Of a stretch of 64,000 bases of DNA, positions 3,160 through 39,900 are shown piece by piece. The stretch is from an uncultured Gemmatimonadaceae bacterium (GTDB lineage Bacteria; Gemmatimonadota; Gemmatimonadetes; Gemmatimonadales; Gemmatimonadaceae): the NCBI GenBank assembly GCA_963740355.1, contig CAVUDW010000003.1:1408001-1472000 (forward strand). Direction: 5' to 3'. A model generated the notes under the pieces. That model ran no database searches and was not told the origin of the DNA. It worked only from the letters and a program-made list of their open reading frames with translations. The stretch's first letter is position 1; every line of letters begins with the position of its first letter. The translations under genes and the position numbers were made by a program.

Positions 3160-5268
3160 CTACGGCATCCGCACCAGTCCGAGCGACACGATGAAGGCGC
3201 GCGGGAAGCCCGGCTCGTAGGCCACGAACTGGCCAGCGACGACATCCGGGTTGAGGAAGCCCGACGTCATGTAGCGTCGATCGAGCAGGTTCTCGACCCG
3301 CACGAAACCTGTCACTCCCACGCTGCTGAAGAGACGCTTCGCCTGGCGCAAGGAGATCGTGGCGTTGAACACCGTGGCCGATGGCAGCTCGACGGTGTTG
3401 GCGTCGTTCAACATGTACGCGCCGGTGTACTGCATGTCGGCGTCGAAGCGCAGCGGCATCGACGGGGCATCCCACCGCGCCCCAACGGACCCCATCGCCC
3501 GCGGAACGCCGACGGCGGCATTGCCGGCATAGTTCGCGAATGCACCGGGCTTGCCGTAGTGCACCGAGTCGACGACGTACTCGAGGTACTTCGCACGCAT
3601 CAACGTCGCCGTGCTGCGGACGGCGAAGCCTTCTTCCAACTCCAATTCGCCGCCCAGCTCGACGCCCTGACGGCGCGTCTTGCCAGCGTTGAAGTAGAAG
3701 CGGCCGCCGCGGTACGGCACCAGCTCATCACGCACTTCGGTGTTGAAGAGCGACACCTCGTAACGCAGTGCCTTTGCGCCAGGCGCCGTGAGCGCGAGCG
3801 TGTTGCGTGTACCGATTTCGTAGGTCAGCGAACGAATCGGCTTGAGGAGCGGGCTGATGCCGGTGACGGTGTCCTGACCGAAGGTGCCAGCAGGATCGGT
3901 CTCGTTACCAGCGGGTGTTTCCACGCCGGCGCCGAGATTGGCGTAGAACAGGTTTGCGCCCGAAGGGCGATAGACGGCGCCAAGCTTGGGCGAAAGCTGG
4001 GTGTAGTTCCGTGTGGCACTGAGCTTCGGCGTGACGCGATCAGTGAGGCCGTAACGCAACGCGTCGAAGCGTGCACCGAGGTTGAGGCTGACCTTCGGCG
4101 AAACCGTCCACTCGTCTTGCACGAACAGGCCAGCGGTCGTGGCCGACTCGTTCTTGTCCTGCTGCAGCGTGGTGCCCTTCTCGCCTGCGGCAGAGAGCGA
4201 CCAGAAGCGCGCTGGACCATCCTGGTGCTGTACATCGCTGCCGACGATCAGGCTGTGCACGCCGAGGTTTTCGTGCAGGCTGATCGTGCCACCGCCATGG
4301 GTCCGGTTGAATTCGCGATATGTGCCGCGCTCGGAGCGAATGAGCTTCTTTGGCGTGACGTACGACATGATCGTGAGCACGCCTGACTGGCCGATTTCGC
4401 GATCGAGCGTGGTGCCGAAGCGGATGATCTGGTTCTCGCGGCGTTCGCGACGGGTGTTGTATGTCGCGTTGGCGAGCCGCGGCGTCGCAAGCGCCTGTGC
4501 CGCGGTGAGCGGGCCCGGAATGCCGAAGTTGTTCTGCGATGCGTTGAGGCGCAGCGCGATGCGCGTGCGAGTGCCCAACGGCGACACCAATCCCGACGAC
4601 AGCACCGAGCGATCGCTGGCCGAATTCTGGCGCCAGCCATCCGACTCGGTGCGCGATACGCTGGCGTAAACGCGCGATTCGCCGGTGCCCGTGCTGGTTT
4701 GTGCGATGGCGCGACGGAGGCCGAAGCTGCCAGCCATGGTGCGGAAATCGAATTGTGTCCCGGGCAATGGCGTGCTGTTGAGCGAGATCACGCCACCCGC
4801 CGCGTTACCCCACAGCGCAGACGAGTTCGATCGGATCACATCCACGCCCGTCATCGTCGCGAGGTCGATCAGGTCGAGACTGGTGCGTCCATCCGGCTCG
4901 GTCTCGGGCATGCCATCGATCATGACGCGAATGCCGCGCATTGTGCCGGCGTTGGAGCGATCACCCGCGCCGCGAGCACCGAAGCCGCGAATCGTGATGC
5001 GGGTATCGACGCCGCTGGAGCGCGATTGCGCCAGCACACCAGGAATGCCTTGGAGTGCATCGGCGAGCCCGATGCCGGCCGTCGCCCGCAGCCGTTCGAT
5101 GCCGACCGATGAGACAGCGAGTGGCGCCAGCAGCAACGGCTTGGTGCTGCGTGTGGCGGAGACGGTCACCTTCGGCAGGGTGGATGCCTTGGTGGTGTCT
5201 GGGCGCTGTTGGCCGGCCAGCGGGCTGGCGGCGAGGAGCGCGAACGGGAGGAGGGGGAGTCGTCGCAT
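3160..5268 (-). CDS. TonB-dependent receptor
   Basis: Signal peptide, VTVSATR TonB-box-like segment, plug (IRGFG, IDGMP, GGVI), barrel strands (GLFVQDEW, RVENLLD), C-terminal PGFPRAF. Confidence 0.92.
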   Translation of the reverse strand: MRRLPLLPFALLAASPLAGQQRPDTTKASTLPKVTVSATRSTKPLLLAPLAVSSVGIERLRATAGIGLADALQGIPGVLAQSRSSGVDTRITIRGFGARGAGDRSNAGTMRGIRVMIDGMPETEPDGRTSLDLIDLATMTGVDVIRSNSSALWGNAAGGVISLNSTPLPGTQFDFRTMAGSFGLRRAIAQTSTGTGESRVYASVSRTESDGWRQNSASDRSVLSSGLVSPLGTRTRIALRLNASQNNFGIPGPLTAAQALATPRLANATYNTRRERRENQIIRFGTTLDREIGQSGVLTIMSYVTPKKLIRSERGTYREFNRTHGGGTISLHENLGVHSLIVGSDVQHQDGPARFWSLSAAGEKGTTLQQDKNESATTAGLFVQDEWTVSPKVSLNLGARFDALRYGLTDRVTPKLSATRNYTQLSPKLGAVYRPSGANLFYANLGAGVETPAGNETDPAGTFGQDTVTGISPLLKPIRSLTYEIGTRNTLALTAPGAKALRYEVSLFNTEVRDELVPYRGGRFYFNAGKTRRQGVELGGELELEEGFAVRSTATLMRAKYLEYVVDSVHYGKPGAFANYAGNAAVGVPRAMGSVGARWDAPSMPLRFDADMQYTGAYMLNDANTVELPSATVFNATISLRQAKRLFSSVGVTGFVRVENLLDRRYMTSGFLNPDVVAGQFVAYEPGFPRAFIVSLGLVRMP

Positions 5269-5564
5269 GCCCCATCATACGCGCTGCCCATGAAAAGTGT
5301 TAATGAATTATTCACATCAATTCGCAGTCGGTCGCTCTGGATTTCCGAGGCTGACGGGGGCGGAACGCTGTGCTCGCGGCGCTCGACGAGGATGGGCACG
5401 GCGGCCGGTACGCCGGCGGCTACAGCTCAACGCCGGGGCGGCGGCCTGTCCGTTCGGCCGATGTTGCCGCCTGCGGCCCGAGGCGAGCCTTGTCTGCGAC
5501 GCAGCTGGCCGGTTCGGGCCGGGTGCGGGTACCAGGGAAAGCCCACTCTTCACTACCCCGACCG

Positions 5565-6476
5565 ATGTCGACTCTCTCCGAAATCTCAGACCAGCTCGCC
5601 GACGCCGTCAGCGCGGCCGCGGCGAGCGTCGTCGCCGTGCATGCGCGGCCCCGCCTCGCCAGCACTGGCGTCCATTGGCGCGATGGCGTGATTGTCACCA
5701 CTGATGCCACCGTCAAGCGGACCGACGACATCTCGGTCACCCTCCCCAATGGCCAGCGCGTGACCGCCACCCTGGCTGGTCGCGATGCCGGGACCGATCT
5801 CGCCGCCCTCCGCATCCCGACCGGGCTGCTGCCGGTGGCGCCGCGGTCGGCCGCCGCTGACCTGAAGCCGGGGCACCTCGTGCTCGCCTTGGCCCGCACG
5901 GGCAATGATGGGCCGCAAGCGACCTTTGGCGTGGTGAGCAGCGTGGGCGAAGCCTGGCGCACCTGGCGCGGCGGCACCCTCGATCGCCGCCTCCAGAGCG
6001 ACGTGGAGCTCTTCCCGGGCTTCGGTGGCGGACCGCTGGTCACGGCCGCTGGCACCATCGCCGGCATCAACTCGGGCGGCATGAGCAAGCCACTCTGCGT
6101 CACGATCCCGGACACGACCATCGACCGCATCCTCGACGCCGTGCTCAACCGCGGCTACGTGGCGCGCGGCTGGTTGGGCGCGAGCATGCAGGTGGTGCGC
6201 TTCTCCGACACCGCCACCGCCAAGCTTGGCTTTGATGGTCGCGGCGGCCTCGTGGTCCTGGACGTCGAGCACGACAGCCCCGCCGCGCACGGCGGCGTGA
6301 TGATCGGCGACGTGCTGGTGCGGATCGACGAAACCCGCATCACGCAGCATGACGATGTGATGGCATTCCTCGGCAGCGATCGCGTGGGCACCACGGTGCA
6401 GCTGCAAGTGGTGCGTGGCGGCGAAGTGGTGATCGTGCCGGTCACGATCGGCGAACGGCCACGCGGCGCCCGATAA
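5565..6476 (+). CDS. HtrA/S1C trypsin-like domain plus PDZ protein; catalytic His and Ser apparently substituted
   Basis: Trypsin-like fold motifs (GRDAGTDLA, PGFGGGPLV, GINS) and C-terminal PDZ (GWLG, SPAAHGG, GDVLV). TTDATV and GFGGG replace TxxHV and GxSGG. Confidence 0.85.
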   Translation: MSTLSEISDQLADAVSAAAASVVAVHARPRLASTGVHWRDGVIVTTDATVKRTDDISVTLPNGQRVTATLAGRDAGTDLAALRIPTGLLPVAPRSAAADLKPGHLVLALARTGNDGPQATFGVVSSVGEAWRTWRGGTLDRRLQSDVELFPGFGGGPLVTAAGTIAGINSGGMSKPLCVTIPDTTIDRILDAVLNRGYVARGWLGASMQVVRFSDTATAKLGFDGRGGLVVLDVEHDSPAAHGGVMIGDVLVRIDETRITQHDDVMAFLGSDRVGTTVQLQVVRGGEVVIVPVTIGERPRGAR

Positions 6477-34541: not shown

Positions 34542-34691
34542 GCTGGTCGTCTGACGGGTGCCAATCCTCAGGTCGAGAAGATTCGACCTCGCAGGGCATG
34601 CTCGGTGTTCGTGGCATCGGCTCGCGCCGATACTCGCACACTGAGCCTCGCCCATTCGGGGATGCGGCATCCTTCAACGCTCGTGAAAGCC

Positions 34692-35342
34692 ATGCAGTCG
34701 GAAGACCTCACCGCGACCGAGGCGGAACAGGCGCATGACGCCGAGGCCAGCATCGCTGCCGTTGCGCAGTCAGCGGTAGTTGAGACTGTTGACGCCGCGG
34801 TCGATCACGGCGTCGATCGCACTGTGGATCGCACCTGGCGCGCGCGTCCGCGGCTCGCCGCGCTCGCCACACGACCGGTCTTCCTCGCGCTGGCCGGCAC
34901 CGCGACCTGCATCCTGATCGCCCGTGGCACCGGCATCTACGCCAGTGCACACGGCGTGGCCACGTGGGACTCGATCGCATTCCTGGCGCGCGTGGTGGCC
35001 ATCGGCTGCCTCGCCTGGACGGCGGCATACCTGAGCTTCCGTGGCGCTGCGCTGCTCAACACCAGCTACGAACTCTCCGACGACCTGCTGGTGCTGCACA
35101 CTGGCGTATTCCGTCGCCGCGCGCATCACATCCCTCTGCGGATGGTCGTGGATGCCACGGTGGACACTGCACGGTGGGAGCGAATGTTCGGCTGTGGCAC
35201 CGTGATCGTGCACTCACGCGATCGGCGTGCGCCGCTGGCGCGACTGGTCGGTGTGACCACGACCGGTGCGCTTGCCGATGATGTGCTGGACCGCGCGACC
35301 GCGGCCCGTCGCGCGGCAGACGCGGTCTTCCTGCTGGACTGA
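34692..35342 (+). CDS. Membrane protein with bacterial PH (bPH_2/DUF304) domain
   Basis: Two TM segments, then TSYELSDD.LVLHTGVF, IPL..V, ERMFGCGTV. Confidence 0.75.
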   Translation: MQSEDLTATEAEQAHDAEASIAAVAQSAVVETVDAAVDHGVDRTVDRTWRARPRLAALATRPVFLALAGTATCILIARGTGIYASAHGVATWDSIAFLARVVAIGCLAWTAAYLSFRGAALLNTSYELSDDLLVLHTGVFRRRAHHIPLRMVVDATVDTARWERMFGCGTVIVHSRDRRAPLARLVGVTTTGALADDVLDRATAARRAADAVFLLD

Positions 35343-35426
35343 GGCGCCGTCAATCGATGAAGACATCACCGCGGACCTGCGTGTAGAGCGCAGGTCCGCG
35401 GTCCCTTTTCTGGTCGTACCGTTCAA

Positions 35427-36890
35427 TCAGCGGTGGCTCGTCAACAACGCCCTGATCTGCGACAGGCTCTGCTCATTCTGTAGCTGCCCATCCCGGAAGA
35501 CGGTCTTCAACTCGCAGTCGTTGACCTCTGCCCACGTGGCCTGGTCCTTCAGCACATATCGTCCGTCAGCATCCTTGAAGACGGCTGTCAGCCCCTTCGC
35601 GCTCCGCTTCGTGCCGTCGTCGGTCTTCGGTGCCTTGAAGATCTCGCGATCTTCGCCCTTCACCACTGCGAACGTCGCCTTGGCCGCATAGCCATCCGTA
35701 TCACGCGTGACGCACTGATAGGTGTACGAGCCGATGCCGAAGACAATGTTGGTGCTGGCGAATCCCTTTGCCTTCAGCCCTTCGCAGATCGCTTCGGCCC
35801 GCTCCATCGTGATCGAGTCACCGTAGATCAGGCCGACGTGCGGGTCCAGTACCCGGTAGCCCTGTGTGCTCATCGTCCCGCCGAACACCTCCCAGAGACA
35901 CTCGATCGCCCCCTTGTACTCCGGCGAGCCGACTGGTGCCGCGGGATCACCGCAGACGATCAGCACCGGATCGCCCGTATCGGGGCGGAAGACGACCTTG
36001 CCATCGCGCGCCAGGATCTGCGACTTGAGCGTCACGGTGTACTCCGTCATCACCTTCCAGAAATCCCAGCTGTCTGACACGATGCTGACGATGCCGGCCG
36101 GATAGACCTCGGTGATCAACCGGGTGAAGGTCCCGATCTCGTCCGACATGCCGCCGGCACACATCACGCTGTGCTCCGTGGCCGCCACGCTGCCACCGAT
36201 CAATTCCTTGTCGGCATCGGCGCCGTAGAACTCCTCCAGAAAGTCGATCGCTGGAATGGTGTCGGTGCCCGTGAACGAGGTGAGGTGCGCTGCACCACTC
36301 ATCCGCGCGGCCTCGAACCCGAACATGCCACGGAACGAAAAGTCATGCCCCTGCCACGGAACGAAGCTCGCATCACCAACCGTCTCGATGGCGTACTTCG
36401 TCAACAGGATCTTGAAGTAGTACGCGGTCGTGGCGCTGGTACTTGGACCCCACAGCGTCGTGGACAGGATCGTTTCGAGATAGTTCGTGAGCCAGAAGAA
36501 GCGCTCGTCGGTGTTGAAGATCACCAGTTGCGGCACCCGAAGCGGAATCAGGCTGCCCTCTGGCAAGGCCATGATGCAGATCGGCAGGAAGCCAAGCTCA
36601 TGGAGCGCCGCCACGTGCTCCGAGCCGACCGCGTTCGGACCGAGGTAGCTGTCGATGCGTCGCGTGAACTTTCGCACCACGGCATCACGTGGCTGGCTGA
36701 AGAAATCGTCGTTCCACTGACGGACCAGGTATTCCTTGAGGAAATACTGCAGGCCGAAGAACACCACCTGATCAGTCTCCGCGCGACGTGTCTTGCGCGG
36801 AGTGAAGTTGGTGAAGATCAGGCTCGTGCCGTCGGGGTACTGGCGTCTGTGGTCAACCTTGTAGCCATCAATCTGCGTGATCGGATTCAT
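35427..36890 (-). CDS. nadV: Nicotinamide phosphoribosyltransferase-family protein (NadV/NAMPT; possibly Namat-type)
   Basis: DGYKVDH..QYP, NFTPR, FFGLQY, WLTNYLET, HDFSFRG, ATEHSVM, SIVSDSWD, FRPDTGDP, IYGDSI, VFGIGS, KAPKTDDG..SAKG. Confidence 0.9.
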   Translation of the reverse strand: MNPITQIDGYKVDHRRQYPDGTSLIFTNFTPRKTRRAETDQVVFFGLQYFLKEYLVRQWNDDFFSQPRDAVVRKFTRRIDSYLGPNAVGSEHVAALHELGFLPICIMALPEGSLIPLRVPQLVIFNTDERFFWLTNYLETILSTTLWGPSTSATTAYYFKILLTKYAIETVGDASFVPWQGHDFSFRGMFGFEAARMSGAAHLTSFTGTDTIPAIDFLEEFYGADADKELIGGSVAATEHSVMCAGGMSDEIGTFTRLITEVYPAGIVSIVSDSWDFWKVMTEYTVTLKSQILARDGKVVFRPDTGDPVLIVCGDPAAPVGSPEYKGAIECLWEVFGGTMSTQGYRVLDPHVGLIYGDSITMERAEAICEGLKAKGFASTNIVFGIGSYTYQCVTRDTDGYAAKATFAVVKGEDREIFKAPKTDDGTKRSAKGLTAVFKDADGRYVLKDQATWAEVNDCELKTVFRDGQLQNEQSLSQIRALLTSHR

Positions 36891-36959
36891 CTATCGCTCA
36901 GGGTGAAGGAATGACTGCCCATTTCAGATTCGCCGCGTTTCCATTGCTGCGTCCGTTCC

Positions 36960-37778
36960 TCAGAGGTCCAGCGGGAAGACCGAGATGGTGTCCGGGTACT
37001 CCGACTGCGGCTTGAACGAGTCGGTCGTGCCGATCGAGGCGAATCGGGCCAACAGCGCGTCATGACCTTTCGCAAAGATCCCGTGCGACACGAAGAGGTG
37101 ATTCTCCCTCGACCCCGCCGCGGTCAACGCGTCGGCAAGATTGAGGAAGGTGCCACCACCGTCACAGATGTCATCGACGATCACGCACACCCTGCCCTGC
37201 ACATCGCCAAGCACCGTCGGCGCCGCGAGCGAACCGTCTTCCAGGTTGCGACTCTTGGTCGCCACGATCACGTCGGCGCCAATCGTGGTGGCTAGACGTG
37301 ACGTCTTCTTGTAGGCACCCGCGTCCGGCGCGACCAACACGAAGTCGGACGTGCCAACACGAGTCCGGATGTACTTCGCCGCCATCGCATCGCTGTTGAT
37401 GTTCGTGCAGCGGTCGAGCAAGGCCGGCCCAACATCGGAATGGGCGTCGAAGACCCGCACTTCCCTCAACGCGAGCGCGTTGATCAATCGTGCGAACACC
37501 TTCAGGCTGAAGGGTTCGCCCGGCACCATCACCCGATCCTGCCGGGCGTACGGCAGGTACGGTAGCAGCAGCGTGATCTGGCTGGACGGCACGCCGACGC
37601 GGTCGAGGGCGTCCACTGCCAGCAGCAGTTGCATCACATCATCGCCTGAGCGAATGCGGCAGCGGATCGTCACTTCTGCGTCGGCATCGACCGGCGCGTC
37701 GAGCCGCAGGTGCGTTTCCCCGCCATTGAACGTGAAGGTCGTGAACTCTATGACCTGCGAATCGTGCGAGATATCCAT
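36960..37778 (-). CDS. prs: Ribose-phosphate pyrophosphokinase-like protein (short, non-canonical; possibly Adps-type)
   Basis: FNGGE, YLPYARQDR, DAHS, PDAGA, KSR, VDDICDGGGTF, SHGIF. Confidence 0.85.
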   Translation of the reverse strand: MDISHDSQVIEFTTFTFNGGETHLRLDAPVDADAEVTIRCRIRSGDDVMQLLLAVDALDRVGVPSSQITLLLPYLPYARQDRVMVPGEPFSLKVFARLINALALREVRVFDAHSDVGPALLDRCTNINSDAMAAKYIRTRVGTSDFVLVAPDAGAYKKTSRLATTIGADVIVATKSRNLEDGSLAAPTVLGDVQGRVCVIVDDICDGGGTFLNLADALTAAGSRENHLFVSHGIFAKGHDALLARFASIGTTDSFKPQSEYPDTISVFPLDL

Positions 37779-37829
37779 GGTGTTGGCTGAGAACCTGTCG
37801 TTGCGGAAGGACTGCAGGAACGAGGTGAA

Positions 37830-38521
37830 TCACAGCTCGAACAGAAAACCCTTCTTCTTCAGTCGCTCGTAACGCGCCGGATCAAATCGGAACAGCTGCG
37901 CGGGCCGGTGCGCCCCCGCACGCTCGAACTCCTTCAGTGGCACCAGTAACTCGAAGCCGAGCACCTTCTTGCGGAAGTTTCGCTTGTCGATCTCCGTACC
38001 GAGGACCGCCTCGTAGAGTCGCTGTAGCTGCGAGAGCGTGAACTTCGACGGCAGGAGCTCGAAGCCGATGGGCTGGTAGCGGAGCTTCCCTCGCAACCGC
38101 GTCAGTGCCGCGTCGAGAATCTCCGCGTGATCGAACGCCAGCGCCGGAACCGCAGCGAGAGGAAACCAATGGGCTTCGCTGGCGTCGGTCGCCGCCGTGG
38201 TGACGTGGTCGGTCGGGCTCACCAGCGCGTAGTAGGCCACGCTCACCACCCGCTCCCGCGGGTCGCGATCGCAGGCTGACCGAAGGTGTAGAGCTGCTCG
38301 AGGTAGACGTCGCGCAGGCCCGCTTCCTCTTGCAGCTCACGTCGCGCCGCGTCGTCCACCGTCTCGGTGATACGGACGAACCCGCCCGGTAGCGCCCACT
38401 CGGCATTGAACGGTGCGAGCCCTCGCCGGATCAGCAGGACCTGCAGTTCGCCGCCATCGAACCCGAAGACGACGCAGTCGACGGCCAGTGCCGGTCGCGG
38501 ATGCTTGTAAGTGTTGTTCAC
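37830..38521 (-). CDS. nrtR: NrtR transcriptional regulator (Nudix plus wHTH), one frameshift near 38270
   Basis: Frame 1: [34 protein letters not shown]. Frame 2: [45 protein letters not shown]. Confidence 0.88.
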
Positions 38522-38527
38522 ACACCA

Positions 38528-38556
38528 AGTATAGTGTGCGTCTTACACCAAGTCAA
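38528..38556 (-). promoter_or_regulatory. Sigma70 promoter overlapped by an NrtR operator
   Basis: Minus strand TTGACT (38556-38551), 17-nt spacer, TATACT (38533-38528), 6 nt, GTG. Palindrome ATAGTGT-GCGTCTT-ACACCAA (38531-38551) has the GT-N7-AC NrtR core. Confidence 0.85.
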
Positions 38557-38643: not shown

Positions 38644-39900
38644 ATGCGAGTCTCACCGCCCCCCGCCCGCCACCTGCTCGCGCTTGCCCTGCTGGCGGGC
38701 TGCGCGGGACGCGGCGACACCGTCACCCCGCCAGTGGCGCCACCGGTCGTGACATCGGGGCCGTCGCCGGACGTCGTGCTCCTCGCATGCGATTCCGGTG
38801 TGCCACTGTGGGTCGCAACACAACAGGGCAACGGACCATGGACCACAGTCACCGCCTCCGCGACTGGCCGATACGCCATCACCTATCCAGCAGGGAGCGG
38901 AGGCTTGATCGTCGTCGACACCATCAACAACGGTGTTCGCACCAGTGTGCTCTACATGGCGTCGGACGAATTCACTGCGATGCTCGCGCGCACCGACACG
39001 ACGCGTTCCTGCACGCGTCGCTCGACCAATGTGACCGTTGCCGGTTTGCGCGGCACCGACGTCGCACGCGTCGGGCTGGGCGGCGGAGCCCGCACCATCA
39101 CCGACAACGGCGTGCCAGGCACCATCAGCGATCTTGGCACGCGCTCGGTCTCACTCGGTGCCGCACGAGTTCATCAGGGCACGATGCGCGCCGACCTCCT
39201 GATTCTCCGGCGCGGCATCCCCTTCCCCGGTCCGCACGCACTAGTCGACTTCGGAAGCGCTGAGTCGATCCGGCTTGATAGCGTACCGCTGACAGTGACG
39301 AATACTGGCGGGCAGGCGACGACGATCGCGATGTCGATTCTGTCGTTCAGCCTCGGTGGCGCCTCGGTGGAACTCGACCGCACCGTGATCGGTGCCGATG
39401 GTACCACACCGCTTCGTCGCGTGCCGCTCGCGTCGCAAGTCAGCGGCGACATACACGCGGTCCTCGCGCAGACGGGCTTCCCAGATCCTCGTCAGGTGCA
39501 GTCATACGTGAGCGCGACATCGCCGATCACGGTCACACTCGGTCCTCCGTTGTCGCAGCCAACGGTGTCGACGATCAGCGGATCGCGCCCGCGCATGTCG
39601 CTGTCCGCGCAGTCCGCGTATGCCACCGCGGTGCAGGCCAGCTATTTCCAGCCGCAGGGGCGATCGCTGAGTGTGATCGTGTCGGCCCGGTATCTCGGTG
39701 GGTTGCCGACGACGTGGGATCTCGTACCGCCGGACCTGACCGGTGTTGCGGGATGGAATCCCGCGTGGGCGCTGACCGCGGGGCAAGCGCTCTGGCAGGC
39801 GAATGGCTTCGGCGGGCTGCTGGGCTCAGAGCCGAGGGGTGGTGCGGTGGGACGGGTGAGCACCTTCGCACTGCAACAAGGGGCAGTGTCGTTGTTCTGA
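38644..39900 (+). CDS. Hypothetical beta-rich lipoprotein
   Basis: Lipobox LLAGC; Thr/Gly-rich open frame of 418 aa. Confidence 0.7.
   Translation: MRVSPPPARHLLALALLAGCAGRGDTVTPPVAPPVVTSGPSPDVVLLACDSGVPLWVATQQGNGPWTTVTASATGRYAITYPAGSGGLIVVDTINNGVRTSVLYMASDEFTAMLARTDTTRSCTRRSTNVTVAGLRGTDVARVGLGGGARTITDNGVPGTISDLGTRSVSLGAARVHQGTMRADLLILRRGIPFPGPHALVDFGSAESIRLDSVPLTVTNTGGQATTIAMSILSFSLGGASVELDRTVIGADGTTPLRRVPLASQVSGDIHAVLAQTGFPDPRQVQSYVSATSPITVTLGPPLSQPTVSTISGSRPRMSLSAQSAYATAVQASYFQPQGRSLSVIVSARYLGGLPTTWDLVPPDLTGVAGWNPAWALTAGQALWQANGFGGLLGSEPRGGAVGRVSTFALQQGAVSLF

Follow-up and report, generated by a model that had tools for sequence, protein, structure and literature searches.

Does a bacterial operon of nrtR with prs-like and nadV-like genes carry out ordinary nicotinamide salvage, or does it sense ADP-ribose and rebuild nicotinamide adenine dinucleotide (NAD+) from it directly? 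The question is raised by three neighbouring genes in a 64,000-nucleotide stretch (the window; G000:C3:1408001-1472000, on contig CAVUDW010000003.1 of GenBank assembly GCA_963740355.1) from an uncultured Gemmatimonadaceae bacterium, whose assembly comprises 5.45 Mb in five contigs at 65% GC and is rated 94% complete. An earlier note on this DNA had proposed a host-encoded form of the phage NAD+ reconstitution pathway NARP1, in which a Prs homologue (Adps) turns ADP-ribose into ADP-ribose pyrophosphate (ADPR-PP) and a NAMPT homologue (Namat) joins the latter to nicotinamide. Host-encoded NARP1 has already been reported (Osterman 2024, Tesson 2024) and assayed (Lan 2026). We put the probability of the whole circuit, a chromosomal nrtR-adps-namat operon that rebuilds NAD+ and is induced by ADP-ribose, at about 0.68, and from the protein sequences we consider it highly probable that the two enzymes would work by NARP1-type chemistry.

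The NAMPT-family protein scores 576 bits against the SPbetaL1 Namat structures (9W5X/9W5W) and 219-230 bits against human, rodent and Xanthomonas-type NAMPT structures. Its identity is 54% to SPbetaL1 and FADO Namat, 48% to H. ducreyi NadV, 37% to Ralstonia NadV and 32% to KVP40 Nampt. In a quick IQ-TREE analysis of 46 full-length homologues, from which partial sequences were left out and in which the program flagged long branches among the phage rows, it falls into a 39-row clade (SH-like approximate likelihood-ratio test 100) with SPbetaL1, FADO, ICP1 and a chromosomal copy from Acinetobacter. Outside it lie Ralstonia NadV, whose gene has nadM beside it, and KVP40 Nampt. On the NAMPT side, the tree comparison called for by the earlier note therefore groups the protein with phage Namat and apart from NAMPT. 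Mapping of SPbetaL1 positions onto the window protein found 18 of 21 identical, with Ser, Tyr and Cys replacing A362, F392 and Y396, respectively, and the entire catalytic core (D13, Y15, F189, R192, D215, H245, R306, D308, R399 and D400 in SPbetaL1 numbering) conserved. Two of the three adenine clamp residues are kept, R35 (R40 in SPbetaL1) and Y389 (F392), with C393 in place of the Tyr; in the clamp helix segment GSYTYQCVTRD, position 3 is accordingly Tyr and position 7 Cys, where the published motif is 'most often' aromatic. In SPbetaL1 Namat, joint loss of R40 and F392 cut NAD+ synthesis about 16.6-fold, and single clamp changes cost just 1.3-1.7-fold (PMC12774641). The ESRGG loop, the GGXLLQ helix and a partner nicotinamide mononucleotide (NMN) adenylyltransferase, which characterise the canonical NAMPT and NadV-NadM systems of salvage II and NARP2, are not found in the window protein and its operon. 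The motifs YKVDHRRQYP and NFTPR singled out from the sequence are both present in the open reading frame (ORF). TPR as opposed to ESR does separate Namat from NAMPT; the proposed contrast with YK.SH fails, and we rejected YKVDH as a Namat marker, since the tested SPbetaL1 Namat carries the 'canonical' form YKVSHKEQYP.

The Prs-family protein has the predicted 272 residues and the motif DDICDGGGTF. A careful tree of 37 of 105 Prs-family proteins, nine Prs included, groups it with SPbetaL1, ICP1 and FADO Adps, on the Adps side of a branch (support 100/99) that splits this group from the nine Prs, again as the earlier note had anticipated. The phage family phrog_619 matches it at 263 bits; against NCBIfam it reaches 127 bits on PRK01259, below the cut-off of 297, and 149 bits on TIGR01251, above that family's broad cut-off of 113. 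The PP loop resembles DDICDGAASF of ICP1 Adps, for which the sequence used here reproduced 20 of 20 residue numbers from the accessible part of PMC13586617. The catalytic lysine K175 (equivalent to Lys185) and the aromatic lid F211 are present, and the C-terminus is short, with 69 residues beyond the DD motif compared with 67-84 in phage Adps and 92-94 in Prs. The protein thus appears to carry the hallmarks of Adps: a remodelled PP loop, the catalytic Lys and loss of the C-terminal helices. It has neither the DDMIDT.GT loop nor the length of about 315 residues nor the PRK01259 score expected of a housekeeping class I Prs. The same genome encodes a housekeeping Prs in a separate gene, and the loop of the window protein does differ from it, as claimed, although the genome's own Prs reads DDMIDTAGT and not DDMIDTGGT. 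A sequence search of the Protein Data Bank (PDB) found no Adps structure.

We then considered how the pair would be controlled. The NAMPT and Prs ORFs are co-oriented and adjacent, 69 bases apart (NARP1 pairs are defined as lying at most 10 genes apart), and a promoter was located as the earlier note had stated (Table 1). It is the only promoter-like site in 3.9 kb and is not significant on its own, since shuffled sequence gives 0.6 such sites. The GTG start codon of nrtR sits 6 bases past the -10 hexamer, so that its mRNA is probably leaderless. NrtR sites are palindromes with a GT-N7-AC core (PMC2330246), and two predicted 21-bp sites of this kind cover the promoter. The sequence TTGGTGT-N7-ACACTAT of operator 1 has two copies in the genome against 0.006 expected. 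The second fills the promoter spacer of a host operon, nrtR-nadB-nadA-nadC (G000:C2:423002-427213, L119), itself with a probably leaderless start, and the 14 outer bases of the two sites are identical. For comparison we collected related loci, the best 80 of 210 candidates, a set dominated by Aquimarina whose members are hence not independent; an operator lies upstream of nrtR or adps in 78 of the 80, against 2.0 expected from shuffles. A 12-base operator pattern proved weak across genomes, matching 5 of 19 relatives, equally often as a control pattern, with 2 of the 5 matches before nrtR-nadB. Control of the operon by NrtR, as predicted, is supported by the tandem operators and their frequency in related loci.

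As to the signal, the operon's NrtR retains equivalents of Arg41 and Arg98. The latter is an ADP-ribose-binding residue of S. oneidensis NrtR, and the arabinose-sensing AraR has Gly there, according to the accessible text of PMC4666351. S. oneidensis NrtR binds tandem sites ahead of prs-nadV, and ADP-ribose suppressed this binding in gel shifts (PMC2330246). From these residues, ADP-ribose sensing by the operon's NrtR seems likely.

From the observed genes, clades, residues, operators and distribution we infer the reactions, induction and physiological role as follows. By occupying both boxes, across promoter and start codon, NrtR would keep the promoter shut, until free ADP-ribose, arising from NAD+ cleavage or the removal of ADP-ribosyl marks, lifts it. 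The inducer would also be the first substrate, because free ADP-ribose would both release NrtR and feed Adps. The Adps homologue would convert ADP-ribose and ATP to ADPR-PP, from which the Namat homologue, with nicotinamide, would make NAD+. Without ADPR-PP, Namat probably makes NMN from phosphoribosyl pyrophosphate (PRPP), and this NMN would re-enter via PncC, NadD and NadE. In outline, this retains the chemistry (on the trees, clamp, PP loop and short C-terminus) and the NrtR control (on the tandem operators) of the circuit first proposed, and drops its tie to defence and its argument from a missing NMN adenylyltransferase.

A number of observations weigh against such a circuit. On the Prs side, the approximately unbiased test against grouping the window protein with Prs is marginal (p = 0.046), and the identities leave thin margins (28.5% to SPbetaL1 Adps, 32.6% to ICP1 Adps, 25-27% to Prs). 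Residues F17, R79, H113, D152 and K175 are common to Prs too and do not discriminate, and the F92 and F223 positions of Adps are Met and Asn. In Namat, the Cys of the window protein is unusual, 29 of 33 bacterial relatives having Tyr at position 396, three His and one Leu, and we found no assayed enzyme from the window's bacterial subclade in the literature; the assayed Paenibacillus pair is near SPbetaL1 (54% and 72%). Membership of the clade alone is insufficient to assign function, since H. ducreyi NadV, a working NMN maker and the textbook bacterial NAMPT, nests inside it. That gene (L086:3828-5315, identical to PDB 9KE8) has lost all three clamp residues and has no Prs neighbour, so in this case, to judge from sequence, clamp and Prs partner appear to go together, and the enzyme may be a Namat reverted to NMN synthesis. 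H. ducreyi and S. oneidensis NadV raised NMN in E. coli (PMC6095924). In NrtR, Lys76 is missing and Asn43 is replaced by Leu, and the nearest solved structure of its subfamily is AraR (192 bits, compared with 124 for S. oneidensis NrtR). The Nudix box is complete, so the protein could hydrolyse ADP-ribose; a strict pattern finds a complete box in 13 of 71 relatives, most of the others deviating only at its end. M. smegmatis NrtR, by comparison, has a damaged Nudix box and no hydrolase activity (PMC6800001). Finally, the repressor is broken as assembled.

This last point is the basis of one alternative. The Nudix domain and the winged helix are both encoded, in two different frames, a split that the earlier note had missed when it read nrtR as one of three co-oriented genes. 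If the frameshift were real, NARP1 enzymes would be expressed constitutively, or repressed in trans by the host NrtR, which perhaps does not answer to ADP-ribose. The host protein occurs in 17 of 19 genus relatives. Its recognition helix is near-identical (DKRNFRRK, versus DKRNFRKK in the operon's NrtR), which together with the 14 shared operator bases would suit such a role; the protein has lost its Nudix box and carries RAPT in place of RDPR. The extra bases are in the assembly, and the background rate of 5 frameshifts per 51,977 codons would affect a 230-codon gene only about 2% of the time, which favours a real break. This background comes from 222 ORFs in 395 kb of three genus relatives, of which 117 have close orthologues in this assembly; 5 of the 117 (about 4%), nadB included, are frameshifted there, so split genes in this genome need caution in general. 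One contig from run X2 (189 letters over 191 positions) and two from run X3 lack the bases at 38277-38279, although these contigs derive from other samples and thus other strains. No run spans the whole stretch, and the closest, X1, has no listed piece over the frameshift. Both halves are 74-76% identical to an intact NrtR from a Verrucomicrobiota locus (L006) with no further lesion, and nrtR is in one frame in 70 of the 70 related loci where both halves were found. Given the related contigs and the frameshifted conserved genes, the lesion is probably an assembly or sequencing error, and a truly disrupted repressor is improbable.

If the nrtR-adps-namat circuit is intact, what does it serve? 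Among the 80 related loci, 70 hold nrtR and 47 hold namat within the span fetched. By family labels taken from one representative per cluster, 35 contain NADAR, 31 ARH, 31 Tpt1, 26 macro and 11 PARG, and 49 hold at least one of ARH, NADAR, macro and PARG. These four families release intact ADP-ribose. Another 211 ORFs remained unclustered, and a scan of 64 lying near or downstream of adps gave one NadR-like protein (L084, with a clamp-less enzyme), one SIR2-like protein (L054) and no Nudix protein. The gene context agrees better with the recycling of intact ADP-ribose than with its cleavage or with recovery from defence. In Aquimarina and other Bacteroidota (L017-L074, L081, L085), long variable arrays lie downstream of adps, often between adps and namat. 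They contain ARH, NADAR, two macro types, microbial PARG, Tpt1/KptA, NDT-like and SLOG genes, as well as metallophosphoesterase, 2OG-Fe(II) oxygenase, DUF4291 and DUF1152 genes; DUF4291, found in 30 of the 80 loci, may act on ADP-ribosylated substrates. In loci L075, L076 and L084, an Adps-clade Prs is paired with a NAMPT homologue whose subclade is separate and lacks the clamp (GVGGILRNHSRD), the NadR-like gene of L084 lying upstream.

The same survey bears on a narrower purpose, recovery of the cell from its own NAD+-depleting anti-phage systems, which the earlier note had suggested in the form of TIR or SIR2 defences. The genome does encode a SEFIR-domain protein next to gajA, a TIR-TM protein and a RES-domain protein, which are possible ADP-ribose sources, as is its one ARH fusion; Paenibacillus NARP1 can rescue E. 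coli from SPARSA (PMC12774641), and a P. aeruginosa NADase toxin derepresses NrtR-controlled salvage genes (PMC11535050). However, none of these genes lies near the operon, the genome has no match to SIR2 or SIR2_2, a SIR2-like domain occurs in a single one of the 64 scanned neighbour ORFs whereas de-ADP-ribosylating enzymes are common, and rebuilding NAD+ during infection would presumably blunt an abortive defence. A dedicated defence role is therefore unsupported, and we regard it as unlikely. Two defence islands lie elsewhere in the genome: one has the SEFIR-domain protein near gajA (L142:690-2042 and 4487-6199), and a second holds TIR-TM, AbiJ-like and NsnA-like genes (L143:486-5520). The ARH fusion, of 607 amino acids, joins an apparent protein-phosphatase domain (HCWGGAGR, by eye) to the ADP-ribosylglycohydrolase, with a kinase-SWIB-like gene nearby (L144:1444-3267), and the RES-domain protein (G000:C3:1808649-1809068) is a possible NAD+ phosphorylase toxin of a toxin-antitoxin pair.

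The remaining alternative depends on host NAD+ metabolism. The genome encodes NadA, NadE and CinA/PncC, together with three PF01467 proteins read by eye as CoaD, NadD and RfaE-like. All three lie outside the window, in keeping with the earlier observation that the window holds no NMN adenylyltransferase. That absence is not decisive, since NMN can reach NAD+ without the enzyme through PncC, the NadD-like protein and NadE. The sole PF04095 match in the genome is the operon's NAMPT-family gene; hence no PncB was found, and by gene content nicotinamide would enter by no detected route other than the operon. Classical salvage, in which a Nudix enzyme or CinA would cut ADP-ribose to ribose-5-phosphate and AMP, Prs would make PRPP, NadV would make NMN and PncC, NadD and NadE would finish, can draw on these host genes, on the complete Nudix box of the operon's NrtR, on NMN synthesis by SPbetaL1 Namat at about half the rate of human NAMPT (PMC12774641), on the NMN raised by the two NadV enzymes in E. 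coli and on the departure of Cys393 from the clamp consensus, but it is improbable given that SPbetaL1 Adps yielded product with ADP-ribose only, that a housekeeping Prs is already present, that H. ducreyi NadV has neither Prs neighbour nor clamp while the window protein keeps two of the residues, and that among the 64 neighbour ORFs the sole adenylyltransferase stands beside a clamp-less enzyme, with no Nudix hydrolase.

Searches for Namat gave no match in any of 60 relatives or of 400 genomes sampled from the phylum, and a Prs-homologue search of 30 relatives returned Prs as best matches, at 25-31% identity. The nearest locus is that of the Verrucomicrobiota metagenome-assembled genome (L006; Namat 84%, Adps 65%, NrtR about 75%). 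The cassette was probably gained by lateral transfer, and on arrival its operator would already have matched the box before the host nrtR-nadBAC operon. Base composition was rejected as a sign of transfer (third-position GC 0.81-0.82, neighbours 0.76-0.83). The insertion site is not mappable because the flanking bPH_2 gene is present in 0 of 19 genus relatives. An X1 contig, from another sample, spans 35266-35484, from the end of namat across the hairpin into the convergent neighbour, so the operon adjoins the same gene there. A prophage setting was rejected, since the window has no tRNA and there is no integrase or capsid gene among the 20 of 46 window ORFs scanned against PHROGs, the one phage-related match being to a tail-lysin family 10 kb away.

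Compared with phage NARP1 (SPbetaL1, Bas63, FADO, ICP1), the window locus is alike in gene pair, gene order and clade of both enzymes, in the Namat catalytic core (including H240 and R302) and clamp residues R35 and Y389, and in K175 and the short C-terminus of Adps. It differs in being chromosomal without sign of a prophage, in being headed by nrtR and operators and in having Cys as third clamp residue, and its activities are predicted from sequence. Non-prophage bacterial NARP1 has been described by Osterman (bioRxiv 10.1101/2024.02.11.579819), where the accessible text suggests housekeeping or regulatory roles and that ADP-ribose may regulate transcription. Tesson (bioRxiv 10.1101/2024.08.21.608784) reported NARP1 as enriched in non-mobile regions, with 469 Acinetobacter matches; the Acinetobacter prs-nadV-nrtR locus in our set (L004) combines a full clamp with an Adps-clade Prs. 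The chromosomal Paenibacillus foliorum pair assayed by Lan makes NAD+ in vitro (PMC12774641). Like that pair and the non-mobile AntiDefenseFinder matches, the window locus is host-encoded, although it belongs to a different bacterial subclade. Phage NARP1 loci also take in enzymes feeding ADP-ribose (10.64898/2026.05.28.727677).

The same three genes were listed in 2008 as nrtR-prs-nadV operons of Shewanella oneidensis, Acinetobacter ADP1, Chromobacterium violaceum and Cytophaga hutchinsonii; these have GT-N7-AC sites in tandem and a second prs in addition to the housekeeping gene (Rodionov 2008, PMC2330246). In the text available to us, those operons were read as PRPP supply for NMN salvage, and the co-regulation of a second prs with nadV was called unexpected and left unexplained. 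The window locus differs in that its sites precede nrtR itself and its NrtR has a complete Nudix box. H. ducreyi NadV (pNAD1) shares the Namat clade with the window protein and has been used as an NMN producer. NrtR is unmentioned in the main text and one supplement file of Lan (PMC12774641). We found no paper linking NrtR to NARP1 in the literature covered, which lay outside most subscription journals and preprint supplement tables; one paper names both topics, with NrtR in its introduction and references only. We lean towards the view that the NrtR-controlled prs-nadV operons known since 2008 are NARP1, an ADP-ribose-induced recycling of host NAD+, its growth in Bacteroidota and its borrowing by phages included. 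If so, the unexplained second prs and the bacterial role of NARP1 left open by Osterman 2024 and Lan 2026 would have one shared answer, the Bacteroidota operons with ARH, NADAR, macro, PARG and Tpt1 would take ADP-ribose off damaged protein, DNA and RNA and return it directly to NAD+, phages would have borrowed the enzyme core and left the regulator behind, and many genes annotated prs and nadV would need renaming. Both the enzyme pair and the operon type of the present locus are known, and its value as a further case lies in linking two literatures; if the reading holds, its genome shows a cassette arriving with an operator that already fits the host NAD+ regulon.

Table 1 Features of the nrtR-adps-namat locus, in positions of the window.
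Feature	Position	Strand	Remarks
Promoter, sigma70-type	38528..38556	minus	TTGACT-17-TATACT
NrtR operator 1 (predicted)	38531..38551	minus	TTGGTGT-N7-ACACTAT; fills promoter spacer; GT-N7-AC core
NrtR operator 2 (predicted)	38508..38528	minus	TTGGTGT-N7-ACACTTA; covers predicted start site and start codon; 23 bases from operator 1
nrtR, N-terminal Nudix half	38243..38521	minus	complete GX5EX7REUXEEXGU box; out of frame after about codon 81
Frameshift	38277..38279	minus	two extra bases relative to related contigs; probably assembly error
nrtR, C-terminal half	37830..38276 (ORF 38249-37830)	minus	RDPR effector motif; NrtR winged helix PF21906; recognition helix DKRNFRKK
adps homologue	37778-36960	minus	Prs family, Adps clade, 272 amino acids; predicted ADP-ribose pyrophosphokinase
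namat homologue	36890-35427	minus	NAMPT family by ORF and family match, 487 amino acids; predicted ADPR-PP:nicotinamide transferase with NMN-forming side activity
Hairpin, 15 pairs	35368..35402		between namat and convergent bPH_2 gene; terminator score on plus strand only

The operon is flanked by the gene for the bPH_2-domain membrane protein (34605-35342) and by one for a probable lipoprotein with no Pfam or NCBIfam match (38644-39900). In two related loci (L016:7994-9924 and L027:7432-9344), two genes come after namat, one for an SPFH (Band 7) protein and one without annotation that encodes about 305 amino acids. Elsewhere in the genome (G000:C2:1476000-1482100), photosynthesis-cluster-like genes, with magnesium chelatase subunits recognised by eye, adjoin another NrtR-family gene.

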